From: Escherichia phage UE-S5b
DNA length: 64,000 nucleotides
Direction: 5' to 3' (one strand)
Sequence record: PP301341.1
In this document: piece after piece, positions 4,887 to 64,000 of the stretch
How positions within the stretch are numbered: position 1 is the first letter of the stretch
How the letters are laid out: each line of letters opens with the position of its first letter
Program-made: the position numbers and the translations under genes
Notes under the pieces: generated by a model
The model's database searches: none
What the model was told of the DNA's origin: nothing
Seen by the model: only the letters and a program-made list of their open reading frames with translations

Positions 4887-7157
4887 ATGGAACACCAAGA
4901 CACTTTTAAGCCTTTACCAGACCCGGCTCAATCAGAGAAGTTAACGGACTGGAAGAAGGAACCAAGTATCCAATTACTGAAGGGTGATTTGGAATCTGCT
5001 AAACCTGCTCACGATGCAATCATGGCACAGATTCGTGAGTGGAATGATTTAATGGAAGTAAAGGGTAAGGCTAAACCCCCAAAGGTTAAGGGACGCTCGC
5101 AAGTCCAGCCTAGACTGGTTCGCCGTCAGGCAGAGTGGCGTTATGCTCCATTGTCTGAACCATTCCTCTCGTCTAACAAACTATTTAAGGTAACTCCGGT
5201 TACTTTTGAAGATGAGTTAGCTGCACGCCAGAATGAGCTAGTTCTTAACTACCAATTCCGTACTCAGCTTAATAAAGTAAAACTGGTAGATGATTACGTG
5301 CATAGTGTCGTAGATGACGGTACTGGTATTGCTCGTATCGGTTGGGAACGTAAGACTATTAAGATTAAAACAGAAACTCCAGTCTTCCAGTTGTATCCAA
5401 TTGAGAACCAGGAACAAGCAGATGTTCTCCAACAGGCTTTGCAGCTTCAGGCAGAGAATCCCCGTGAGTATGACGAAACAATGCCAGAAGATATCAAAGA
5501 AGCTGTTAACTACTTCAATGAAACTGGAGAAGCTACTTATGCAATTCAGACAGGGGTCACTGAAGTAGAAGTAGAAAAAGCACTGGTTAACAGACCTACC
5601 GTTGAAATGCTTAATCCTAATAACGTAGTTATTGACCCGAGCTGCAATGGTGATTTGGATAAGGCTCTGTATGCAGTCATTTCCTTTGAGACTTGCAAAG
5701 CAGACCTTATGAAAAACAAAGACCGTTATCACAACCTAGATAAAATTGACTGGGAGAGTTCCAGCCCCATTACTGACCCAGACCATGAAAGTAAAACCCC
5801 TAGCGATTTCCAGTTTAAGGATGCACTTCGTAAGAAGGTAGTTGCTTATGAGTACTGGGGATTCTACGACATCAATGATGATGGTTCACTGGAACCAATT
5901 GTTGCTACCTGGATTGGTTCTACTCTTATTCGTATGGAGAAGAACCCATTCCCAGATGGTAAGTTACCATTGGTAGTTGTTCCTTATATGCCTCGTAAAC
6001 GTGAACTCTATGGTGAAGCTGATGCTGAATTGCTAGGAGATAACCAAGCAATTCTTGGTGCAACCATGCGTGGGATGATTGACCTGTTGGGCCGAAGTGC
6101 AAATGGTCAACGTGGTTATCCTAAAGGGATGTTAGATACCCTGAACCGTCGTCGATACGATGATGGACAAGACTACGAATATAACCCAATGCAGGGCAAT
6201 CCTAGTCAGGCCATTATGGAACACAAGTTCCCTGAGTTACCCCAGTCGGCAATAGTAATGACTCAGATGCAAAACCAGGAAGCAGAAGCACTAACGGGTG
6301 TTAAAGCATTCTCGGGTGGTGTAACTGGTGAAGCTTACGGAGATGTAGCTGCTGGTATTCGTGGTGTACTAGATGCAGCATCCAAACGTGAGATGGCAAT
6401 CCTTCGTCGATTAGCTAAGGGTATGGCAGACATTGGTACTAAGATTTGTGCAATGAATGCTGTGTTCTTATCTGAGAAAGAAGTAGTACGTATTACTAAC
6501 GAGCAGTACGTAGAGATTAACCGTGAAGACCTTAAAGGTAACTTCGACATTGAGGTTGATATTAACACTGCTGAAATTGATAACCAGAAGTCCCAGGATT
6601 TGGGCTTCATGGTTCAAACACTAGGCAACACAGTTGACCAGTCTATTACGTTATCTCTTGTAGCTAAGATTGCAGAACTTAAACGTATGCCAGACCTTGC
6701 TCATGAGTTACGTACATGGCAACCACAACCAGACCCTATGGAAGAACAGCTTAAGCAATTGGCAATTCAGAAAGCACAGCTTGAGAACGAAGAGCTGCAA
6801 AGTAAGATTGCACTCAATATGGCTAAGGCTAAAGAGGCTGCTTCTAGTGGTGACCTTAAAGATCTGGATTATCTGGAACAGGAATCTGGTACTAAACATG
6901 CTCGTGACATGGAAAAACAAAAAGCACAATCTCAAGGAAACCAGAACCTTCAGATAACTAAGGCGTTGACAACACCTACTAAAGAAGGTGAAACTACCCC
7001 CAACATATCTGCTGCTGTTGGATATAACGCTTTGACTAATGGGAACTCTATACCAGAACGTGACTTAGCTGCACAACAAGACCCAGCTTATTCACTTAGT
7101 TCCCAATTCTATGACCCTAGCCAAGACCCAGCATCGGCTCTTGGCATGAACTTGTAA
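4887..7157 (+). CDS. portal protein (N4 gp59-like)
   Basis: 756 aa, position between lysis genes and capsid genes, size matches N4 portal; assigned by synteny and size rather than a specific motif. Confidence 0.75.
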
Positions 7158-56497: not shown

Positions 56498-57715
56498 TTA
56501 ACTTAATGCATAATCTGTTTCTAGAATGTCTTGCCAGAGGCTGTCATCCAGCTTACCAGCAGAGAACTCTTGTCCCAGTACTTGAGACAGAATGAAGCCC
56601 AGTAAGTCACTCTTAGCAATGTCAGACAGAATCTGATTGTACTGACGACGCAGGTCATTACCATAGTTAGGGTGGCAACGGAAGCAATCATGTACAGTCA
56701 TTACAGGGAATGGTTTCTTAGGCATAGTGTCGATCATATCTGCTACTACTTGACGGTCTACCAATGCAATAGTATTCGGGTCAAGGAAGTCTAGGATAGA
56801 TAGCGACAGGAATCCTGACCTTTCATAATGATTCCAGATTTCCATAGTCTTCTCTTGGTTCCCCTCAATAACGGGGTATTCACTTGGCCCGATATCGCAC
56901 AGTTCCCGTACATAGGCAACCAGTTTAGGGTCGAAGTTACAACGACGCAGCATCTCACGTACTACCATCCCATCAATAGAGTGAGTGATGTTAGCAGAGA
57001 GCATACGGGTCTTCTCTTCAGTACCCTGAACCATACGAGTGATGTCAAATGGTTTACCCAAGAAGTTAACAGTCTGTACTTCAAGAACCATGACTTTAAT
57101 GACAGCATGGAAGTTGTCAGGGAGTACCCATATGTAACGGTTAGCATCCGGGTTACCACATTGCAGTAAGAACTTGTTAAGTGCCCAAGGACCACTTGCA
57201 ACTGTTTCCATTACATTTTCAAAAGTCTTGAGACGGATACCTTCCCCGAATACTTCTTTAGGTTTGGCTTCTGAACCGTAGAATGCAGTCATAACTGCCT
57301 GCTTGGTATCACTACGTTTAATACGGGATGCTTCACCAAGGATGTCCAGCATCTTGTGATATATAACTGTATAAGCATCACGTCGTAATGGCTTACCATT
57401 CTCTCCCATGTAATTAACTACGTTACACAGTTCAGCAGCAGAGCGGTCACCAGTCAGGCAGGCCAGTAACTGCAAGCCTGATGATGTAGCATCCAGGGCT
57501 ACGGCATATCCGATAGGCTTACCTGCTTTCATATCTTTCCATGCGTTTATGCCAGCATAGAATAGTGCAGATTCCTCAGCTTCATCTACCAGATTAAGCA
57601 AGTTAGCTTCATTCTCATCGAACCAAGCAATACGCTCATTCCAGGTCTTTTTATCCAGACCATAGTTATTGGCGATATCTACTTTCAGGTATTCACGAGC
57701 GGTTAACAGTTGCAT
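56498..57715 (-). CDS. RNA polymerase II large (catalytic) subunit, T7-like single-subunit RNAP C-terminal half (N4 gp16-like)
   Basis: 405 aa; T7 RNAP motif A-like ALDATSSGLQ, motif B-like K..VMTAFYGS, motif C-like VHDCF. Confidence 0.8.
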   Translation of the reverse strand: MQLLTAREYLKVDIANNYGLDKKTWNERIAWFDENEANLLNLVDEAEESALFYAGINAWKDMKAGKPIGYAVALDATSSGLQLLACLTGDRSAAELCNVVNYMGENGKPLRRDAYTVIYHKMLDILGEASRIKRSDTKQAVMTAFYGSEAKPKEVFGEGIRLKTFENVMETVASGPWALNKFLLQCGNPDANRYIWVLPDNFHAVIKVMVLEVQTVNFLGKPFDITRMVQGTEEKTRMLSANITHSIDGMVVREMLRRCNFDPKLVAYVRELCDIGPSEYPVIEGNQEKTMEIWNHYERSGFLSLSILDFLDPNTIALVDRQVVADMIDTMPKKPFPVMTVHDCFRCHPNYGNDLRRQYNQILSDIAKSDLLGFILSQVLGQEFSAGKLDDSLWQDILETDYALS

Positions 57716-57772
57716 TTTATGTTCCTTTTGCTTCTTGGCTCCTCACTATGAAGAGCCTGCTTATTGGATGGA

Positions 57773-58012
57773 TTAGCCAGCATTAAATGATGACAATACT
57801 ATTCCTGGTTCCACACCTTCTGTGGCAATACCCAGGTACTCGACGTGCACTTTATCAGGGGAAGAACACCAAGCGGAAGATAGATTCCATTCTCCGTCTG
57901 GATTAATAAGGCGAGCTTCTTCCTTAGTTGTAGTAGCTACCACTGCGGAATCGTATGTATCCCATCCTGTATTCTCTTCCTGGCTAATGAGCCATAGTTT
58001 TAACCTACTCAT
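57773..58012 (-). CDS. hypothetical small protein
   Basis: 79 aa ORF between the two RNAP II genes. Confidence 0.35.
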   Translation of the reverse strand: MSRLKLWLISQEENTGWDTYDSAVVATTTKEEARLINPDGEWNLSSAWCSSPDKVHVEYLGIATEGVEPGIVLSSFNAG

Positions 58013-58823
58013 CGTTTACTAACTCCTTATCAGCGAACTCCAGTACAGCTTTGTTGTAGCTGGTTCCCTGATAGTTGATGTGATAGCCCTGAGCGTAAGT
58101 ACGCCCACGTTTGTCATATTTGTGACCCAGTGAGAAGTTATTACCTTCTTTGGTCACTAACTCCATTACTTCCTTAGCAGTACGGCTGTACTTCTCAAAG
58201 GCTTTAACACGTTTCTCATATTCCTGACGGGTTTCACCCTCTTTGGGNTTATCCATATTAGGACGAGAGTCTTTTACATAGTTAGCAACGTCCCAGTTNA
58301 TNCTTAGACGNTGATTATTCATACGGTTGATGTGATCAAGACAGACATCCATCTCATGATGGTTCTTCTTGAGGATGATACTTCCCCTGCTCTCGTAGTA
58401 ACCTGTATCACGGTTACACAGAACAGGCTTAGGAGCACTTACGATAGGTAATGGATACTGGAATGCTTCCAGTTCCATCTGAACATCTTCACTAATCTCG
58501 TAGATAACACCGAACTTGTCGATGGTAGGGTCATAGTTGAAGCAGTCATTCTCTGCCATCTTATACAGACAGTCAGCGATGTACTGAGCATCATCTGAAT
58601 GGCTCATAAGAGAGCCAATCATAGTCTGAAGGTCAGCACGTTTATGTAGGGCAATCTGCACCATTGCATCAATGAGCAGCTTATAATCAATTTCCAAATA
58701 GGCAGCGAATGCCTTAAAGTCAATTTCTTCGGAGTCCTCAAATTCCTTCCTCATGCGAGGGAGTAATTGATTTTTGTTGAAAAGAATTTCGAGTTGCTTC
58801 TGATGTTCAATGGATGAGTACAT
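58005..58823 (-). CDS. RNA polymerase II small subunit, T7-like RNAP N-terminal half (N4 gp15-like)
   Basis: 272 aa, immediately upstream of the catalytic subunit; AGGAGA Shine-Dalgarno; size matches N4 gp15; contains several N. Confidence 0.6.
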   Translation of the reverse strand: MYSSIEHQKQLEILFNKNQLLPRMRKEFEDSEEIDFKAFAAYLEIDYKLLIDAMVQIALHKRADLQTMIGSLMSHSDDAQYIADCLYKMAENDCFNYDPTIDKFGVIYEISEDVQMELEAFQYPLPIVSAPKPVLCNRDTGYYESRGSIILKKNHHEMDVCLDHINRMNNXRLXXNWDVANYVKDSRPNMDXPKEGETRQEYEKRVKAFEKYSRTAKEVMELVTKEGNNFSLGHKYDKRGRTYAQGYHINYQGTSYNKAVLEFADKELVNDE

Positions 58824-58854
58824 CGCTTATTCTCCTAAATGTGATTAATAACCA

Positions 58855-58869
58855 AAAGCTGCGGAGCAG
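58855..58869 (-). promoter_or_regulatory. vRNAP-type early promoter hairpin (N4 P-like)
   Basis: Template (+) strand CCAAAAG-AGCTGC-GGA-GCAGCT: 6 bp stem, 3 nt GGA loop, 32 nt upstream of the RNAP II small-subunit start. Confidence 0.6.
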
Positions 58870-58876
58870 CTATTAC

Positions 58877-59137
58877 CTAACGTTTAGTCCAAAAGGTAAT
58901 ACGAATACTGTTCTCTTGACCAAGGTAGTCAATACGTACATATAAACCATTACCACTAAACTCGTTATTTTTCTTCTGGTAAGGCCATACCAGACTACGC
59001 ATAGGTATTTTAATTAAACCAGATATGTGACCTAGTTTAGTACGATCCTTTAGTTCGTTTTGTAATGCACAATAGATATCATGCCGTGTAAGTGCTCTGG
59101 CTCTGACTTGAGCAGTCCACAGTTCTTCATAAGTCAT
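58877..59137 (-). CDS. hypothetical small early protein
   Basis: 86 aa ORF. Confidence 0.4.
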   Translation of the reverse strand: MTYEELWTAQVRARALTRHDIYCALQNELKDRTKLGHISGLIKIPMRSLVWPYQKKNNEFSGNGLYVRIDYLGQENSIRITFWTKR

Positions 59138-59139
59138 TA

Positions 59140-59490
59140 TTAACTCCAGTAGTTGTAAGCATCGCCTAAGTGTTTACGCCATGCTTCGGGTAACAGTACA
59201 TTTCCGGTTACATTAATGAACTGGTATGGGTCCAGGTAGTCATTACTCATGACTTTGAAATCCCATTGTGGATTGGCAGATGCATAAGCAATAAAGCCCT
59301 CAATGAAGCCATAGATAGCACCCTCTTTGATACGGTTACCATTGCCATCTCTTACTGGAATAGCAAAGCTATTACCATAATGACCATAGGCCATACCCCA
59401 ACGAGCACCATGCTTCTTATAAGCTAACTTGGCAGAAGCATTGGTATGTTGTCCTAGTGTATTGGTAGTGAATACGAATATTTCTTTCAT
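59140..59490 (-). CDS. hypothetical early protein (possible Rossmann-like nucleotide-binding fold)
   Basis: 116 aa ORF; domain guess is weak. Confidence 0.4.
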   Translation of the reverse strand: MKEIFVFTTNTLGQHTNASAKLAYKKHGARWGMAYGHYGNSFAIPVRDGNGNRIKEGAIYGFIEGFIAYASANPQWDFKVMSNDYLDPYQFINVTGNVLLPEAWRKHLGDAYNYWS

Positions 59491-59493
59491 TAG

Positions 59494-59874
59494 TTACCCC
59501 TTTGGATTCTCCACAAAGTAGTTATACATAGCTTTTACTAGCTTCTCTTTAATAACCTCACCATGACATGGTTTCGGATAACAGAAGCACTGTAAGGCCA
59601 ACCCTTTCTCATCAATGGCTTTATTACCAAGACGATTAAGTTCATCCAATACAGCTTGATTCTTCCTCATGATTTGTTCATTAAGCCATACTCGATATTT
59701 GGTTATAACCTGTTCTCTTGAACCGTCTTTACCAATAACGAATGGATTTCCTAATGGTGAACCACGTCCGATATACTCACCGGATTTACCGTGATGTTTA
59801 TTAACAATGATAATTGGACGTGCAGCTACACCCAGCAAAGCATTGGTGTCGTCCCCTAATGTAATAGTCTTCAT
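59494..59874 (-). CDS. DUF4326-like protein
   Basis: RGSPLGNPF and C-terminal CFCYPKPCHGEV motif resembling the DUF4326 pattern. Confidence 0.5.
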   Translation of the reverse strand: MKTITLGDDTNALLGVAARPIIIVNKHHGKSGEYIGRGSPLGNPFVIGKDGSREQVITKYRVWLNEQIMRKNQAVLDELNRLGNKAIDEKGLALQCFCYPKPCHGEVIKEKLVKAMYNYFVENPKG

Positions 59875-60113
59875 GGTTTTAATGCCTCAATAGATGTACT
59901 TACTTTACATACAGTAGTTCCTTCTAATGCGTCTATTTTGTAAGCTAACCCTCTTGTTAACATTACCCCGTTCATTACTTTATTAACCTCTTCTAGGTTA
60001 GGTACAGAAAATGCTTCATTTAATACGGGAGTTGTATGCCAATCTATATAATCATCCGGCATAGCTATAAAATCATCCCCCTTTTTGAATACATAATATT
60101 CTTCATAAATCAT
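59871..60113 (-). CDS. hypothetical small early protein
   Basis: 80 aa ORF. Confidence 0.4.
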   Translation of the reverse strand: MIYEEYYVFKKGDDFIAMPDDYIDWHTTPVLNEAFSVPNLEEVNKVMNGVMLTRGLAYKIDALEGTTVCKVSTSIEALKP

Positions 60114-60424
60114 GGCTTAAGTACCTGGAATGCGAACACAGGACGTTTACTACGCCACTGGTTCATAGCTAGTTCACTAGTTTCAGAACCATCATGTAAG
60201 TTATAAATGAATGAGATTACATAGTCTGGTTCTTCCGGGAAGTTCTCTGTAGAGAATGGTAGACCTGATTCTTTAAGGATAGGAACCAGTGGAGATTCAG
60301 CATTGCAGTAGAGGGTAAATTCTTCATTGAATGCCTGGCTTGTTTGAGATACATAATCAATATTACGCATCATTTTATCTACATCTGTAAATGTAGAATC
60401 ATGAACTACTAGAATAGTTTTCAT
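60110..60424 (-). CDS. hypothetical early protein
   Basis: 104 aa ORF. Confidence 0.4.
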   Translation of the reverse strand: MKTILVVHDSTFTDVDKMMRNIDYVSQTSQAFNEEFTLYCNAESPLVPILKESGLPFSTENFPEEPDYVISFIYNLHDGSETSELAMNQWRSKRPVFAFQVLKP

Positions 60425-60675
60425 ACCTTTCTCAATGTCCCATAGATGTTATTATCGACAATACTCAAATCACAAAAACCAATTTCTTCTTGTCTCCCAG
60501 AGGATACCCAGATATTGTTTTCTGTTAGCTTAGGCTTCTTAGAGAATCCTATTAATGAGGTATTAGCACTTTTATATTGACGTGGTAATAAAGCTATATA
60601 CTTAACCCAGTGAGGTACTTGAATGGTGTGCTTCATATATTCCACAGTCTTGCCTGTAGGATATGTAATAATCAT
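60421..60675 (-). CDS. hypothetical small early protein
   Basis: 84 aa ORF. Confidence 0.4.
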   Translation of the reverse strand: MIITYPTGKTVEYMKHTIQVPHWVKYIALLPRQYKSANTSLIGFSKKPKLTENNIWVSSGRQEEIGFCDLSIVDNNIYGTLRKV

Positions 60676-61032
60676 TTAGTACCTCACAACGTATACGGGT
60701 TTATTAAGCCTATACATGATATCAATCATGTGCTTGGTTCCTTTGGAATTACCATCCCAGAAACATACAGCAGCATCTGCAAATTCACCCATTTCCAGGT
60801 TACGTTTATAACCAGCACATTTACCATGTTTATCCCAGTTTGCTGGGAAATTATGAATAGGCATTTTGTTATTAGCCCATAGACTATATGCAAGCATATC
60901 TGCTCCACGAGCCATACCACATACTAATTCCGGACATTCAGGTATATTCCCTGAATTTACTAACTTCTGTAATTCCTCAATCATAAGATTGGTATTTACG
61001 AAGTCTCTTCCACCAGCTACGATTAGTCTCAT
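60676..61032 (-). CDS. SLOG/DUF2493-like Rossmann-fold protein (predicted nucleotide-binding)
   Basis: IVAGGRDF and VCGMARGAD glycine-rich motifs; 118 aa. Confidence 0.45.
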   Translation of the reverse strand: MRLIVAGGRDFVNTNLMIEELQKLVNSGNIPECPELVCGMARGADMLAYSLWANNKMPIHNFPANWDKHGKCAGYKRNLEMGEFADAAVCFWDGNSKGTKHMIDIMYRLNKPVYVVRY

Positions 61033-61250
61033 TTCTGATACCCCTGTATATAGTTAATACGGCGAATACGTTGAGTAGATGCCTTAACAGCCATCTGTTG
61101 ATTTTCTTCTTTACGCTGGTTTTCCAACAGCTTATCCCATTCTTTCTGGTTCCGTTGTTTCTGTAATATACGACTACAACGCTTATGATTAGCAACTCCT
61201 TTACGTTTGTTACATACAGGGCAAACACCATAATCAGTTGAGTACATCAT
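61029..61250 (-). CDS. small basic protein with CxxC zinc-ribbon-like motif
   Basis: 73 aa; GVCPVCNKRKG. Confidence 0.4.
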   Translation of the reverse strand: MMYSTDYGVCPVCNKRKGVANHKRCSRILQKQRNQKEWDKLLENQRKEENQQMAVKASTQRIRRINYIQGYQK

Positions 61251-61251
61251 T

Positions 61252-61497
61252 TTAGTTGAATCCGTAATAGTTAAAGTAAGGAGCCTTTCTGTCTTCAGTT
61301 GATTTGATAATCACTGATTCATCTAGAAAATACATCTCATTATTAATACGTACTTCTCTGTAAGATAACTTACCAAAGTTACGTATATATACCTTTCTAA
61401 CATATACCTTACGGGTATGCTTTAGCATGAACCAGGCATACCCTTTGGGATTTACTAATATTGTTTTATCTACGATGACATCACTAAGATTGTTCAC
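61252..61497 (-). CDS. hypothetical small early protein
   Basis: 81 aa ORF. Confidence 0.4.
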   Translation of the reverse strand: MNNLSDVIVDKTILVNPKGYAWFMLKHTRKVYVRKVYIRNFGKLSYREVRINNEMYFLDESVIIKSTEDRKAPYFNYYGFN

Positions 61498-61798
61498 CGA
61501 GTGCCTCCATCAGTATTTTACGAATAACGTTAACATCAGATTCAGTACCAATTAAACCAACAGGTTTACCTGTACTATCAGTTACAAAGCCAGCAATCCT
61601 TTCCATCTCTGCTGTAATTAACTTGTCACCATTAATAAGACGATTACGAAGGTAAGCTTCATAAGCTACCTCTATATCTTCTACTGTGGTTCTTTCATTA
61701 CGAGCAAATGGATTACTTAATGGGAATGGTAAATGTACCCGTATATTCCTGTCAGCTACTTTAGCTTGGTGAGGAAGTATACATACTATTTCATTCAA
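61484..61798 (-). CDS. hypothetical early protein
   Basis: 104 aa ORF. Confidence 0.4.
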   Translation of the reverse strand: MNEIVCILPHQAKVADRNIRVHLPFPLSNPFARNERTTVEDIEVAYEAYLRNRLINGDKLITAEMERIAGFVTDSTGKPVGLIGTESDVNVIRKILMEALGEQS

Positions 61799-62169
61799 GA
61801 TTATTTCTCCTATTTAAATACATATCTAACTATTCAAAAATAAAAAATAGGAGCCTCCTATTGGAGGACTCCTTACTATTTGATACATGGATGATTGTAA
61901 GTAACAATCTTACGTACTGGTTCAGATGTCTGTTGCTTAGCAGCCAGACGTTCCTTCATCTTCTGTACGTCAGCTTTGGTTCCCATGATTAATGACTTAC
62001 GCATGTTTGGTACTCCACATAAAGTTAAAAGGCTTGTTGTTGTTACGTACAATTCTTACAACCATTTGATAGCCATTGAGTTGTACAACACCATAGTGTC
62101 GTTTCTGTACACCAGTGTGATATCTACGAAAGATACATTCTTCAATGGCATCCTCAATGTTAGTGAATA

Positions 62170-62388
62170 TCACTGGTTCCTCTTTGCAAACTCTTCTGCT
62201 TCTTTAGCCCAGAGTTGCTTACGTACCTCTTTAGCTATGATGGAAGCAAACAGACACTTAACGAATACAACTGGTAACTTACAAATAAGTACCAGCTTAG
62301 TTCTTACCCACTTGGCTCCATTGAGAATGTAACCACGTAGGCGATACAGCACATAACAGAGTATTACAAACGCAATGAAGTCCAACAT
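62170..62388 (-). CDS. small membrane protein
   Basis: 72 aa; N-terminal hydrophobic helix FIAFVILCYVLYRL. Confidence 0.4.
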   Translation of the reverse strand: MLDFIAFVILCYVLYRLRGYILNGAKWVRTKLVLICKLPVVFVKCLFASIIAKEVRKQLWAKEAEEFAKRNQ

Positions 62389-62392
62389 AGTC

Positions 62393-62578
62393 TTACACCT
62401 TATGAAGTTTACGGATTTGTTTACGAGTAGGTTTAGCTACAAAGAAGTGGTCATAATGCTGACCATTCTTATCTTCTACAGATACCTGCCAACGAGCATT
62501 AAGAGACATCTTACTACCCCAAGGTTGTAACATAACAATCAACTTTTGTGAGTTATAACGGTTACATACTGTACGCAT
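62393..62578 (-). CDS. hypothetical small early protein
   Basis: 61 aa ORF. Confidence 0.35.
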   Translation of the reverse strand: MRTVCNRYNSQKLIVMLQPWGSKMSLNARWQVSVEDKNGQHYDHFFVAKPTRKQIRKLHKV

Positions 62579-62682
62579 AATGGTTACTCCTTCATCTAAT
62601 ATAAATCTATATCTATCTGGTTACTGTTTCAGTACCCTTCGTCTAAAGATACTCAAAAAGTAGAAATAGATTATCGTCTAGT

Positions 62683-62711
62683 TAAAAATAAAAGACTCCC
62701 CGAAGGGAGTC
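62683..62711 (-). terminator. rho-independent terminator
   Basis: GACTCCC-CGAA-GGGAGTC preceded on + by an A-run (U-run on -). Confidence 0.55.
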
Positions 62712-62721
62712 TAGTGGTTGA

Positions 62722-63106
62722 TTAGAAAGTCAGTTTACGAGCATATTTATTCTCGTCTGCTGGGATGTCAGCAGCCTCTGCTTTCACACGACGAAGTTGA
62801 ACTTGCAGGTTAATGATACCTTCTTCACCTGGTTCCAGGTTCTGAGCATATTCAATTAACTGTTCCAACAGGTCGTTCTGTGCACAACGCATAGCACGGA
62901 AGTCAGCATTGCTGCTATTAGTAGGCAGCGGCTCCTGAGTATCCAAAGGAATACCAGTAGGCAATGAGATGAATTTCTCATCATCAGAGCCTTCATTAGC
63001 TACATAACCAATGTTCAGCCAGAACTGAGCTTTAGGCTTATCAGTTTTAGCAGTAGAAGTAGCAGCAGCGTTAGATTGACCGAAAGTGAATTTTTGAATA
63101 GACATT
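62722..63106 (-). CDS. hypothetical early protein
   Basis: ATG at 63106 preceded by GGAGAG; track start at 63204 would give a weak 33 aa extension. Confidence 0.45.
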
Positions 63107-63217
63107 TTGTACTCTCCAGATAAATGATTGTTTGATTTATGGGTTTGTCCGTCGGTGACTAAACCCAAGAAAAGACTTAAGATTTCAATGATTAGTGGAT
63201 GCATTTAAATCATCCAT

Positions 63218-63234
63218 AAGACGCGGAGCGTCTT
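63218..63234 (-). promoter_or_regulatory. vRNAP-type early promoter hairpin (N4 P-like)
   Basis: Template (+) strand CCATAAG-ACGC-GGA-GCGTCTT: 7 bp stem, 3 nt GGA loop, upstream of gene 62722-63106. Confidence 0.6.
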
Positions 63235-63238
63235 GGTT

Positions 63239-63442
63239 TTAACTGTTATTAGGTCGGTGCTGTTTGATAGCTTTAAGCAAGGCTATCATGTCATCAATTT
63301 CTTTCTCGTTAAGTTTCCATAATATGGAATCCCCATCAGGGTAACCTTTAGCGGAACCATGATTCACGAGAACTACCCCGTCTACAATTGCTCCAAATAG
63401 TTTTCCTCTTTGGATAGCAATCTTCTCTATGTTAAATGCCAT
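63239..63442 (-). CDS. hypothetical small early protein
   Basis: 67 aa ORF. Confidence 0.4.
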   Translation of the reverse strand: MAFNIEKIAIQRGKLFGAIVDGVVLVNHGSAKGYPDGDSILWKLNEKEIDDMIALLKAIKQHRPNNS

Positions 63443-63534
63443 AAATAGGATTCTCTTAAAGTAGAATAACTATCTACTTTTGACTATCTATCTAATGTTC
63501 AAAACAGGAGACTCCGAAGAGCCTCCTAGGTGAC

Positions 63535-63858
63535 TTAGTTTTTAGTCAGGATGTCAATTACTTTTGAATATTCTGCGTTATAGATACGAGCGTTTTCTTT
63601 ATCCTTACAGAATTCTTCAATACTTTTCTTACGCAGAGTCTCAGTCATAGCTGTCTCCTCTGCCAGTTTATTAACAAAGGTATGCATTTCTAATTTAGTA
63701 CGGATGGCTTGTTTCTCTGCCATAGTACTTACATATGAATTAAGCATACCTACTGCTTTAGTTGCTGTACCGAATGTATCTGCAACAGTAGTAGCAGCTG
63801 AGTTAACAGTACCAAGTAAAGTTCCTGCGGTCATACGTACAGTAGCTTGAGTAGTCAT
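63535..63858 (-). CDS. hypothetical early protein
   Basis: 107 aa ORF; no clear Shine-Dalgarno. Confidence 0.4.
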   Translation of the reverse strand: MTTQATVRMTAGTLLGTVNSAATTVADTFGTATKAVGMLNSYVSTMAEKQAIRTKLEMHTFVNKLAEETAMTETLRKKSIEEFCKDKENARIYNAEYSKVIDILTKN

Positions 63859-63900
63859 GATGATAGCTCCAATAGTTGATGATAGGACGACATGTCCATA

Positions 63901-63915
63901 ACATGCGGAGCATGT
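63901..63915 (-). promoter_or_regulatory. vRNAP-type early promoter hairpin (N4 P-like)
   Basis: Template (+) strand CCATAAC-ATGC-GGA-GCATGT: 6 bp stem, 3 nt GGA loop, 43 nt upstream of gene 63535-63858. Confidence 0.55.
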
Positions 63916-64000
63916 GTAACGTGTAAGGTGGGGTAGGGTAGTGGCTACACCGTCAACATACCGGGGGGGNTNGTTGAGTGTAAGGGTGTAGCCCCAGCCA

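Follow-up and report, generated by a model that had tools for sequence, protein, structure and literature searches.

The ten small genes at positions 58877–61798 of the 64,000-nucleotide stretch of Escherichia phage UE-S5b analysed here (PP301341.1; hereafter the window) are best explained as an early block of accessory genes, variable in content, in a G7C/N4-like phage. The source phage is a Gamaleyavirus, a G7C/N4-like member of the Schitoviridae. We tentatively favour, at somewhat short of an even chance, the reading that the core of the cluster is a counter-defence set directed at NAD/ADP-ribose chemistry, as the literature has already predicted. This core would comprise three families that are fused elsewhere and encoded here by separate genes, namely the SLOG protein ORF7, the DUF4326 protein ORF3 (together with ORF10), and the Macro-fold protein ORF2. 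The first-pass annotation had proposed an early anti-defence module that might sponge signalling nucleotides. The module itself agrees with the published prediction, with the fusion counts among ORF7 relatives, and with results for PhiDruSM1 ORF83, a protein of the same family, whereas the sponge mechanism has no direct support.

All ten ORFs were confirmed on the minus strand, with lengths from ORF1 to ORF10 of 86, 116, 126, 80, 104, 84, 118, 73, 81, and 104 aa. They had been described as ten tightly packed small ORFs of 60–126 aa; both the number and the packing stand (99.8% of the region is coding), but the actual range is 73–126 aa. At four junctions the genes overlap by 4 nt (ATGA type) and at one by 14 nt; the other gaps are 0–3 nt, and no ambiguous bases were found within the cluster sequence. 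The region is 99.9% identical in phage UE-S5a, and the locus is not new, the early block being already in GenBank at this identity. Because nine of the ten ORFs match PHROG families, the annotation of UE-S5a carries all ten, and the dN/dS values against relatives (0.01–0.36 for the nine measurable ORFs) indicate purifying selection, these are real genes rather than chance ORFs. The cluster has the lowest GC in the whole window and its gene content differs between relatives. None of the ten ORFs matched a PADLOC model.

Three N4-type virion-RNAP promoter hairpins, each with a GCTCCGC core and a TCC loop, were called on the minus strand from published features (PMC4496689). The first lies at 63915–63901. 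The second (63218–63234; AAGACGC-TCC-GCGTCTT) lies 5' of the gp2 homologue and is the closest early promoter 5' of the cluster. The third (58857–58871; AGCTGC-TCC-GCAGCT) closes its loop with a perfect stem of 6 bp, and is located immediately 3' of the cluster and 5' of the RNAPII small-subunit gene. By these coordinates, the second and third hairpins flank the cluster. In N4, a sequence identical to the third hairpin precedes gp15, and a related hairpin before gp2, at position 562, has the GCTCCGC core in common with the second. Two terminator-like hairpins are also present on the minus strand, one at 62712–62693, 3' of the second promoter and ahead of the cluster, and one with a T-run at 61854–61867, 56 nt 5' of the ORF10 start, where phage SP5M has a terminator annotated at the equivalent site. 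Thus, the cluster follows the early promoters by position, as had been noted earlier, but both terminator-like hairpins intervene after the second promoter. The cluster is presumably expressed early. The bracketing promoter hairpins, the variable gene content, the low GC, and the dN/dS of ORF7 (0.22–0.36, the top value in the cluster) were counted for the NAD/ADP-ribose reading, and the two terminator-like hairpins and the lack of PADLOC matches against it.

The product of ORF7 (60676–61032; 118 aa) consists of a SLOG domain alone and belongs to the YAcAr family. It matches Pfam PF10686 (YAcAr, formerly DUF2493) with 40.4 bits against a cut-off of 28.2 (E value 2.5e-10), its translation contains both motifs quoted in the first-pass annotation (IVAGGRDF and VCGMARGAD), and its AF2 model (pLDDT 96.5) has a confident SLOG fold. 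The SLOG/DUF2493 and DUF4326 domain calls are therefore upheld, the latter by ORF3 (see below). Foldseek matches include ShosA (E value 4.5e-5), the DprA-like antitoxin component of ShosTA, as well as DprA (4ljk; E value 1.4e-3), the SLOG domain of ThsA from type I Thoeris with 3'cADPR (7uxs; E value 1.7e-3), and the LOG-family structure 1weh (E value 0.04). ORF7 shares with ShosA, DprA, and ThsA the SLOG Rossmannoid fold (E values 4.5e-5 to 1.7e-3; query TM 0.59–0.72) and, as modelled, would have the nucleotide/ssDNA-binding pocket at the same place. In contrast, the identity to these host-encoded proteins is 13–17%, and the phage-encoded ORF7 is a minimal single domain that lacks the SIR2, SAM, and winged-helix partner domains. 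Diverse relatives all retain residues R9, D45, W66, R77, N78, G94, and G98, and the invariant polar constellation of R9, D45, R77, and N78, together with G98, fits an enzyme or a binder alike.

The product of ORF3 (59494–59874; 126 aa) is a DUF4326 protein (PF14216; 80.6 bits, cut-off 25, E value 1.4e-22) with a CxCx4CHGE motif, and the DUF4326-type motif noted earlier in this ORF is present as CFCYPKPCHGEV. It is the orthologue of N4 gp12 (85% identity), with residues 20–120 nearly invariant. ORF10 (61484–61798; 104 aa, TTG start), the orthologue of N4 gp9 (73% identity; dN/dS 0.09–0.17), encodes a DUF4326-like paralogue that has diverged and does not have the CxCx4CH Cys/His motif. It scores 15.7 bits against Pfam DUF4326, below the cut-off of 25, belongs with ORF3 to PHROG 464 (E value 4e-15), and aligns with ORF3 by BLASTP (E value 2e-6) and hhalign (probability 87.5%, E value 3.6e-6). 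The product of ORF2 (59140–59490; 116 aa) belongs to the A1S_2505 family, has a TARG1/DarG-like Macro fold, and is the orthologue of N4 gp14 (45% identity). The motifs FGSN, HGAGAA, and RVGCGLAG are intact in gp14 and lost in ORF2. Unlike TARG1/DarG-type macrodomains, ORF2 has no Pfam Macro match, its IGCGLxG binding loop is deleted, and its glycine-rich loop is substituted; this loss of the ADP-ribose-binding loops counts against the NAD/ADP-ribose reading. Together with gp11, the orthologue of ORF5 (81% identity), these N4 genes keep both the order and the position between the promoter hairpins and the RNAPII genes. However, N4 has no counterparts of ORF1, ORF4, ORF6, ORF8, and ORF9, and a SLOG gene was looked for in N4 and is absent, so the SLOG/DUF4326/Macro trio is not obligatory; this absence was likewise counted against the favoured reading.

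The three families are linked by fusions in a set of 49 proteins that are closely related to ORF7 but longer. In this set, Pfam found DUF4326 in 11, NADAR in three, Macro in three, and DUF488-N3a in three, while NCBIfam found a DarG-type macrodomain in five (E value 1e-50), A1S_2505 in one, and two NADAR-type models in three and two members. The totals are 11 for DUF4326, at least five for Macro/DarG-like domains, at least three for NADAR, and one for A1S_2505. By phmmer, ORF3 aligns to 11 SLOG-fusion proteins over their DUF4326 portion (E values down to 1.7e-30), and one fusion protein (P0319) is aligned by both ORF2 and N4 gp14. A SLOG-Macro-NADAR-DUF4326 counter-defence set was predicted by Iyer, Burroughs, Anantharaman, and Aravind (Viruses 2022, PMC9503650; Viruses 2021, PMC7824862), in which the viral domains would process ADP-ribose derivatives that host immunity generates (PMC9503650). 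The cluster has the domain families and the early-gene placement in common with these architectures, and the fusions were independently reproduced here. In contrast, the published architectures are single polypeptides, whereas UE-S5b has separate genes, no NADAR, an A1S_2505 protein with lost binding loops as its Macro-type member, and a second, Cys-less DUF4326 paralogue.

The hydrolase-type nature of these fusion partners (Macro/DarG, NADAR, and DUF4326) suggests a pathway of processing, not of sequestration. It is thus improbable that ORF7 is a non-catalytic sponge for an immune second messenger, be it 3'cADPR or a different signal derived from ADP-ribose or a cyclic nucleotide, even though the 3'cADPR sensor ThsA is among its top structural matches, the protein is small, stand-alone, and encoded in the early region, and its conserved pocket residues are compatible with tight ligand binding. 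The sponges of immune messengers Tad1, Tad2, and Acb2 have folds unrelated to SLOG, and no Tad- or Acb-type protein is among the best 50 PDB structural matches listed for ORF7. Moreover, the YAcAr family spans 14,066 clusters and turns up in many DNA-replication contexts. Considering the fusion partners, these contexts, and a pocket that would suit enzyme or binder, the sponging suggested in the earlier annotation found no direct support.

AVAST type III senses phage proteins and acts through a nuclease effector; it is not known to be an ADP-ribose system, so the sole experimental precedent for a phage SLOG protein of this family does not point to ADP-ribose chemistry. This precedent is ORF83 of PhiDruSM1, a DprA/Smf-like SLOG protein whose deletion lowers plating on AVAST type III, which is dispensable on defence-free hosts, and which was listed as anti-AVAST III after plasmid-complementation tests (Ojima et al., bioRxiv 10.1101/2024.04.14.589459). 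The comparison with ORF7 was made through the sequence of CAjan gp82, the apparent Queuovirinae counterpart of ORF83, which belongs to the same family as ORF7 (Pfam YAcAr PF10686, E value 2e-18). Residues R89, N90, T112, and D114 of gp82 are exactly those reported for ORF83 and align with R77, N78, T99, and H101 of ORF7. ORF7 resembles ORF83 and gp82 in being a stand-alone, phage-encoded SLOG protein of ~120–130 aa, and it has the R-N and G-T pocket residues in common with them. However, the identity is only ~31–34%, gp82 has a 15-residue insertion, D114 corresponds to H101 in ORF7, and PhiDruSM1 and CAjan belong to another phage family (siphovirus) with another neighbourhood.

According to the EVADES authors, ORF83 would bind AMP and act as a phosphoribohydrolase. 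This prediction, the LOG-family structure among the ORF7 matches, and the DUF4326 genes that often adjoin ribonucleotide reductase (nrd) genes in large phages, with some PHROGs named accordingly, would fit housekeeping in nucleotide metabolism, in which a LOG-like phosphoribohydrolase (ORF7) and a phosphatase-like ORF3 reshape pools with no defence target. The nrd setting was also counted against the NAD/ADP-ribose reading. We consider housekeeping the least probable of the explanations weighed. ORF7 lacks the conserved catalytic Glu of the LOG motif PGGxGTxxE, having GNSKGTKHM instead (a loss that also counts against the favoured reading), and Pfam gave no LOG match. Furthermore, the variable presence of the genes among close relatives, including the N4 case, fits an accessory rather than a core metabolic function, and ORF83, although needed on AVAST III, is dispensable on defence-free hosts.

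The DNA-metabolism settings of the SLOG family, which count against the NAD/ADP-ribose reading, are consistent with a DNA-centred role. In ICP1, the domain forms the C-terminus of an SF1 helicase; in Bacillus phage pW4, it adjoins primase and DnaB, and in further phages DNA polymerase or exonuclease genes. A DprA-like SLOG protein might act on ssDNA while its DUF4326/Macro partners repair or protect phage DNA, for example by removing DarT-type ADP-ribosyl base adducts or in recovery from nuclease damage, in which case anti-defence would amount to damage tolerance. DprA is a top structural match of ORF7 (TM 0.74 for 3uqz), and DarG-type macrodomains and NADAR, which reverse DNA ADP-ribosylation, are among the fusion partners of its relatives. 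In addition, a DNA ligase is, besides the SLOG protein, among the PhiDruSM1 deletions that lower AVAST III plating (bioRxiv 10.1101/2024.04.14.589459), and DUF4326 is reported to be fused to replication and R-M components (PMC7824862). Nevertheless, we regard this role as unlikely. ORF7 falls short of the Pfam DprA model and, as a single 118-aa domain, lacks the extra domains of full-length DprA; in ORF83, the EVADES authors found neither the residues for DprA dimerisation nor those for RecA binding. Moreover, the UE-S5b genes lie in an early accessory block outside the replication module, and the Macro-like ORF2 has lost its loops.

The other six ORFs have the following features. ORF5 (60110–60424; 104 aa, acidic) shows the strongest conservation in the cluster (dN/dS 0.013–0.09); its relatives form only 20 clusters, none with a Pfam domain, its identified orthologues are in N4-like phages, and it matched nothing in Pfam, PDB, or the SLOG profiles. 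ORF8 (61029–61250; 73 aa, PHROG 6887, pI 10.1) had been called a CxxC zinc ribbon; the CPVC is present, but CPVC-x8-HKRC is a CCHC zinc knuckle (C10, C13, H22, and C25, invariant in five phages) followed by a basic helical tail, and the protein probably binds nucleic acid. ORF9 (61252–61497; 81 aa, GTG start, basic; PHROG 10124, E value 2e-36) was not found in 24-32N, carries an in-frame stop in pSb-1, where it is pseudogenised, and, judged from these sequences, is restricted to Gamaleyavirus and dispensable. ORF6 (60421–60675; 84 aa, basic; PHROG 1972, E value 5e-19) occurs in Gamaleyaviruses as two divergent allelic types (95–96% versus 58–61% identity). ORF1 (58877–59137; 86 aa, basic; PHROG 14487, E value 2e-58; dN/dS 0.08–0.12) was found at four of five sampled Gamaleyavirus loci, the exception being pSb-1. 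ORF4 (59871–60113; 80 aa, acidic) is an ORFan in a variable slot, with no Pfam or PHROG match; it is limited to eight Gamaleyavirus records, G7C among them, and is missing or replaced in St11Ph5, pSb-1, SP5M, and 24-32N.

For these six in particular, classical host take-over could be envisaged, in which the proteins would block replication, transcription, or division of the host through protein-protein binding, as N4 gp8 inhibits the host clamp loader. The early-region proteins are small and strongly acidic or basic, ORF5 is extremely conserved, ORF8 combines a knuckle with a basic tail, and the Bacillus subtilis SLOG protein YpsA is a cell-division inhibitor. Searches that included Pfam, PHROG, and PADLOC, however, found no homology of the cluster ORFs to characterised host inhibitors, ORF9 is a pseudogene in pSb-1, and ORF4 is sporadic. 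As the SLOG/DUF4326/Macro linkage would be left unexplained, we judge take-over quite improbable.

We know of no biochemical activity for YAcAr, DUF4326, or A1S_2505 proteins, a point that also weighs against the NAD/ADP-ribose reading. In the favoured NAD/ADP-ribose reading, the conserved pocket of ORF7 would bind, and probably cleave, an adenine-ribose-phosphate ligand, candidates being a messenger or toxin derived from ADP-ribose, or an ADP-ribosyl group attached to nucleic acid; the ligand, its cleavage, and the defence system targeted are all predicted. ORF3 would then process the ORF7 product, e.g., a terminal ribose phosphate. Because their catalytic or ligand motifs are lost yet the proteins are conserved, ORF2 and ORF10 would probably be non-catalytic partners in this genus.

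Across 58800-61900, identity is 99.9% to Escherichia phages UE-S5a, UE-M3, PBM-2 and PBM-3 and drops to 82-92% with other Gamaleyaviruses (G7C-like, Schitoviridae, Enquatrovirinae). In UE-S5a all ten ORFs of the cluster (10/10) are already annotated, mostly as hypothetical proteins, and three carry labels, namely 'DUF4326 domain-containing protein', 'DNA processing protein DprA' and 'antirepressor protein'. The cluster itself (58877-61798) consists of ten small ORFs, all on the minus strand and with exactly the coordinates given in the first-pass annotation; they are numbered here from the low coordinate, and transcription proceeds from ORF10 to ORF1. The tight packing described there was equally evident, with 99.8% of the interval covered, 4-nt overlaps at four junctions, a 14-nt overlap at one, and gaps of 0-3 nt. 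The proposed size range of 60-126 aa was correct at its upper end and too low at its lower end, the measured range being 73-126 aa. The quoted sequence motifs are present in the cluster ORFs, and the cluster is free of ambiguous bases. The genes that come next on the minus strand, immediately downstream of ORF1, encode the two subunits of an N4-type RNA polymerase II (RNAPII). Neither Rfam nor a tRNA scan gave any match in 57500-64000.

The downstream genes have peculiarities of their own. The window contains 64 N (58299-58311 and elsewhere), and these ambiguous bases break up the RNAPII small-subunit gene, with X in the translation of 58005-58823. Between the RNAPII subunit genes of UE-S5a there is an HNH homing endonuclease gene (locus L001, 1700-2206; window 57716-58004). 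The same site holds only a 79-aa ORF (57773-58012) in the window and an endonuclease VII gene in Shigella phage pSb-1, and it has the look of an insertion hot spot for homing endonucleases.

Nine of the ten ORFs match a PHROG family, and dN/dS against relatives is 0.01-0.36 for the nine ORFs that are comparable. ORF4 (59871-60113) belongs to no family and was found in only eight Gamaleyavirus records, G7C among them. Orthology was assigned by local tblastn against six related loci. Based on this analysis, ORF10 (61484-61798), ORF5 (60110-60424), ORF3 (59494-59874) and ORF2 (59140-59490) correspond to N4 gp9 (73%), gp11 (81%), gp12 (85%) and gp14 (45%), respectively, and no counterpart of ORF1 (58877-59137), ORF4, ORF6 (60421-60675), ORF7 (60676-61032), ORF8 (61029-61250) or ORF9 (61252-61497) was found in the N4 locus. 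Gene content also varies among the Gamaleyaviruses: ORF4 is sporadic, and additional genes are inserted in 24-32N, St11Ph5 and SP5M. ORF9 appears dispensable; its pSb-1 homologue (locus L005, about 4949-5191) is 96% identical, contains an in-frame stop and is unannotated. At 0.362, GC in the segment 60001-62000 is lower than anywhere else in the 64-kb window (0.42-0.46), and the GC skew there is strongly negative; both fit a block of accessory genes that are foreign or evolve fast. Variable gene content combined with the lowest GC is the pattern of an accessory block.

The N4 early promoter is a DNA hairpin with a GC-rich heptamer centred at -11, inverted-repeat flanks and a 3-nt loop (PMC4496689). 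Perfect hairpins with a TCC loop occur exactly three times on the coding strand of the window. All three have a 6-7 bp stem and a GCTCCGC core, are of the N4 vRNAP promoter type and lie on the minus strand. They are positioned at 63915-63901, at 63234-63218, where the core is shared with the hairpin preceding N4 gp2, and at 58871-58857, where the sequence is identical to that of the hairpin preceding N4 gp15. The cluster is thus bracketed by the second and third early promoters. On the minus strand, the stretch from the second promoter to the cluster includes two strong hairpins (62712-62693 and 61867-61854) that have T-runs and resemble terminators, and terminators are annotated at matching places in phage SP5M. 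Early expression of the ten ORFs is therefore likely, as predicted from position, yet it would need read-through or another promoter. A scan for host-type sigma-70 promoters gave 10 sites, fewer than the 20.6 in shuffled controls, so that no promoter of this type is claimed.

The SLOG/DUF2493-like character first attributed to ORF7 was borne out by a match to Pfam PF10686 (YAcAr, formerly DUF2493; 40.4 bits vs a cut-off of 28.2, E value 2.5e-10) spanning model positions 1-66 of 66. The full name of YAcAr is 'YspA, cpYpsA-related SLOG family' (Pfam), and PF10686 was present in 120 of the 120 homologues listed for ORF7. PDB sequence searches with ORF7, ORF2 and ORF3 gave no significant match, and the folds were therefore taken from AF2 models. 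The ORF7 model (pLDDT 96.5, 26 homologues as input) has alternating strand-helix elements (E2-7, H14-26, E35-38, H44-54 and onward) and is a Rossmannoid three-layer alpha/beta structure in which the sheet is parallel, strand 1 is followed by a Gly-rich loop and strand 2 by a GxGxD-type motif. Its motifs AGGRDF and CGMARGAD are conserved. Residues R9, G39, G43, D45, W66, R77, N78, G94 and G98 are invariant across diverse relatives and T99 is nearly so; these include the predicted pocket residues R9, D45, R77 and N78, as well as T99. Such a constellation would fit either an enzyme or a specific binder. The top PDB matches of the model in Foldseek were ShosA (E value 4.5e-5), H. pylori DprA and the ThsA SLOG domain with bound 3'cADPR; the LOG-like protein 1weh was a weaker match (E value 0.04).

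Two more specific assignments of ORF7 were rejected. The catalytic Glu of the LOG phosphoribohydrolase motif PGGxGTxxE is absent, the segment being GNSKGTKHM, in which T+2 is His and T+3 is Met, and there was no LOG Pfam match at E ≤ 0.1. A purely metabolic LOG-like role, weakened by this missing residue and by the accessory distribution of the gene, is thus very improbable. The GenBank label 'DNA processing protein DprA' found in related records failed when examined with HMMs: ORF7 has no match to PF02481 (DNA_processg_A) at E ≤ 0.1, its relatives have sub-threshold matches only, and the label reflects fold similarity only.

The family of ORF7 is large, with 1086 phage records and 14,066 clusters at E ≤ 1e-3. 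In the Vibrio phage ICP1 (L010, 2663-4348) it forms the C-terminal domain of an SF1 helicase, in Bacillus phage pW4 (L012, 3998-4354) the gene is directly after those for primase and DnaB, and in the T7-like Drulisvirus JKP2 of Klebsiella (L011, 4001-4339) it comes after the RNA polymerase gene. In these phages the family is placed with DNA or RNA metabolism and not in an early accessory block. Elsewhere, exonuclease or polymerase genes adjoin the SLOG gene.

Assignment of ORF3 to DUF4326, initially made from its Cys/His motif, was confirmed by PF14216 (80.6 bits vs a cut-off of 25; model positions 4-82 of 82). The motif CxCx4CHG[DE] is present, and its residues C96, C98, C103 and H104 are invariant from N4 to the Gamaleyaviruses, as are the complete CxCx4CHGE and most of residues 20-120. 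The product of ORF10 scores only 15.7 bits, below the cut-off of 25, and has GLIGTESDV in place of the Cys/His motif. It is nevertheless related to ORF3, as indicated by remote homology to PHROG 464, the PHROG of ORF3 (E value 4e-15), by BLASTP (E value 2e-6) and by hhalign (probability 87.5%). Thus, ORF10 is a divergent paralogue and not a member of the Pfam family, and to judge from its sequence it is probably non-catalytic. In large myoviruses, DUF4326 genes often adjoin aerobic or anaerobic ribonucleotide reductase genes (H99, H100, H125-H129). This adjacency hints at a link to nucleotide metabolism and may explain the misleading 'NrdA-like' PHROG name. The GenBank names 'ribonucleotide reductase NrdA-like' and 'GTP-binding domain' were treated as leads only and disregarded.

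The product of ORF2 belongs to the A1S_2505 family of phage non-structural proteins (NCBIfam NF049995; 83.6 bits vs a cut-off of 45, E value 1e-23) and has no Pfam match. Its AF2 model (pLDDT 95.5, 50 homologues) places it in the Macro fold, so that the GenBank label 'ADP-ribosylglycohydrolase' has partial support, at the level of the fold only. The A1S_2505 consensus is FVFGSNxAGxHGAGAA ... SFAIPTK ... VTRIGCGLAG, and in profile alignments its RIGCGLAG aligns with the P(K/L)IG(A/C)GLGG loop of SLOG-fused macrodomains, a loop found inside the Pfam Macro match of one such fused protein, P0258. In TARG1/DarG-type macrodomains this IG[AC]GLxG loop binds the diphosphate of ADP-ribose, and the catalytic Asp of TARG1 is within RIGCGLD. 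Neither loop is intact in ORF2: loop 2 is deleted (8 residues), and in loop 1 HGAGAA is changed to HTNASA and FGSN to FTTN. These changes were seen in all five Gamaleyavirus copies sampled. The closest metagenomic relatives also have the 8-residue deletion, most deleted copies have the FTTN and HTNASA changes as well, and one homologous protein, P0127, is intermediate, having the deletion while retaining the glycine motifs. N4 gp14 and 43 other A1S_2505 members retain the two loops in intact form. Since the loops are lost while dN/dS is low (0.05-0.12), ORF2 is a conserved Macro-fold protein in which, from its sequence, canonical ADP-ribose binding has very probably been lost. A Kuravirus 'Appr-1-p processing' protein adjoining a SLOG gene was also considered; comparison with ORF2 detected no similarity, and no Pfam model, that for Macro among them, matched the protein significantly.

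The families of ORF7, ORF3 and ORF2 are linked to one another by gene fusion. Among 49 ORF7 relatives longer than about 165 aa, drawn from the best 150 cluster representatives, the Pfam partners were DUF4326 (11), NADAR (3), Macro (3) and DUF488-N3a (3). The NCBIfam partners in the same 49 were DarG-type macrodomains (5; best E value 1e-50), A1S_2505 (1) and two NADAR-type models (3 and 2 members). ORF3 aligns to 11 DUF4326-SLOG fusions with either domain order (E values down to 1.7e-30), and the A1S_2505-SLOG fusion, P0319, is aligned by both ORF2 and N4 gp14. Viral SLOG, Macro, NADAR and DUF4326 domains have been reported to be repeatedly combined, and were predicted to process ADP-ribose derivatives of host immunity (PMC9503650, PMC7824862). 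Our counts independently reproduce this combination. In UE-S5b, the families of ORF7, ORF3 and ORF2 are encoded as separate genes within 2.7 kb. DUF488 or DUF488-N3a is fused to three or four close SLOG relatives (P0235 and others), and the DUF488 family is absent from the window.

The best-supported reading is that the cluster is a counter-defence set centred on NAD/ADP-ribose. The ORF7 product would bind, and probably cleave, an adenine-ribose-phosphate ligand, and the ORF3 product would process what ORF7 releases, with ORF2 and ORF10 as non-catalytic relatives. As the biochemical steps are all inferred, we propose this reading tentatively and give it somewhat under an even chance. The first-pass annotation had suggested instead that ORF7 sequesters immune signalling nucleotides as a sponge. 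Resemblance to the ThsA SLOG domain is compatible with this idea, the hydrolase-type fusion partners fit it poorly, and nothing specific was found in its favor. No likeness to Tad1, Tad2, Acb2 and similar sponges was seen among the 50 best Foldseek PDB matches of ORF7 or among its phmmer PDB matches, which lowers the case for membership in the known sponges and not that for a sponge-like action. Overall, we regard a sponge as improbable.

A phenotype is known for only one member of the ORF7 family, ORF83 of the Queuovirinae phage PhiDruSM1. Deletion of ORF83, described as a 'DprA/Smf-like Rossmann protein', lowered plating on AVAST type III; the gene is listed with anti-AVAST III activity, plasmid-complementation tests were reported for candidates, and DNA ligase is among the other genes whose loss had the same effect (Ojima et al., bioRxiv 10.1101/2024.04.14.589459). 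An AMP-binding pocket of R89, N90, T112 and D114 has been predicted for ORF83, and homologues in amoeba viruses are fused to DUF4326 (EVADES preprint). The comparison with ORF7 was made through CAjan gp82, a Queuovirinae protein (YAcAr, E value 2e-18) whose gene occupies the equivalent position and which has these four residues at exactly the numbers reported for ORF83; they align with R77, N78, T99 and H101 of ORF7. ORF7 is therefore a distant member (about 31-34% identity) of the ORF83 family.

AVAST III is not known to be an ADP-ribose system, and DarG-type macro and NADAR domains strip ADP-ribose from DNA bases. These points, together with the DNA ligase result in PhiDruSM1 and the occurrence of the SLOG family with the ICP1 SF1 helicase, the pW4 primase and DnaB, and exonuclease or polymerase neighbours, pull against counter-defence and make a DNA-centred repair or protection role a serious rival, which we nonetheless consider unlikely.

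For the remaining ORFs, fewer clues are at hand. The first-pass annotation regarded ORF8 as a CxxC zinc ribbon; the CxxC is there, and in place of a double-CxxC ribbon the protein has a CxxC-x8-HxxC (CCHC) knuckle, invariant in five phages. ORF5 was considered as a degenerate SLOG- or deoxyribosyltransferase-like domain on the basis of its C-terminal 'DGSETSELAMNQWRSKRPVF', and this was rejected, as hhalign against SLOG profiles gave probabilities of 0.1-0.6%. Its PDB searches, both single-sequence and profile, returned chance matches only, and the 20 clusters to which its family is limited have no recorded Pfam domain. Two allelic types of ORF6 exist in the Gamaleyaviruses, with 95-96% vs 58-61% identity to the window copy (compared with L004 and L006), and in the same phages the flanking ORF7 and ORF5 retain at least 72% and at least 95% identity, respectively; the pattern suggests local recombination or diversifying replacement. 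No support was found for the label 'antirepressor protein', and PADLOC gave no meaningful match for any of the ten ORFs. Classical host take-over may well apply to some of ORF1, ORF4, ORF5, ORF6, ORF8 and ORF9; we found no evidence supporting it, and as an explanation it is distinctly improbable.

Returning to the counter-defence reading, we speculate further that the YAcAr SLOG, DUF4326 and Macro-type families might together serve phages as a pathway for clearing or destroying immune products derived from ADP-ribose, whether these are soluble signals or adducts on phage DNA. The loop-less ORF2 and Cys-less ORF10 of the Gamaleyaviruses would then be conserved pseudo-enzymes, possibly working against a host defence protein as decoys or as stoichiometric inhibitors and not as hydrolases. 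As a whole this proposal is rather unlikely.

Much of the locus is already known: it is in GenBank at 99.9% identity, its families are in the catalogues, and the prediction of function dates from papers of 2021-2022. Added here are the orthology to N4 gp9, gp11, gp12 and gp14, the Macro fold of ORF2 with its lineage-specific loss of ligand loops under purifying selection, the recognition of ORF10 as a Cys-less DUF4326 paralogue, the quantitative fusion evidence, and the family link between ORF7 and ORF83. Over a thousand sequenced phages have YAcAr SLOG proteins, and the same holds for DUF4326 proteins. In N4 and G7C-type phages, which can be grown on laboratory E. coli, the families are encoded as separate small genes. 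In N4 the SLOG gene is naturally absent and the Macro-like gp14 is intact, whereas in the Gamaleyaviruses the SLOG gene is present and the Macro-like protein is loop-less. This natural contrast makes two things directly testable: what such proteins do to ADP-ribose-related immune products (degradation, sequestration or repair), and at which defence they are aimed. The cluster would be unsurprising to a specialist, yet it offers a tractable E. coli system for this biochemical question.
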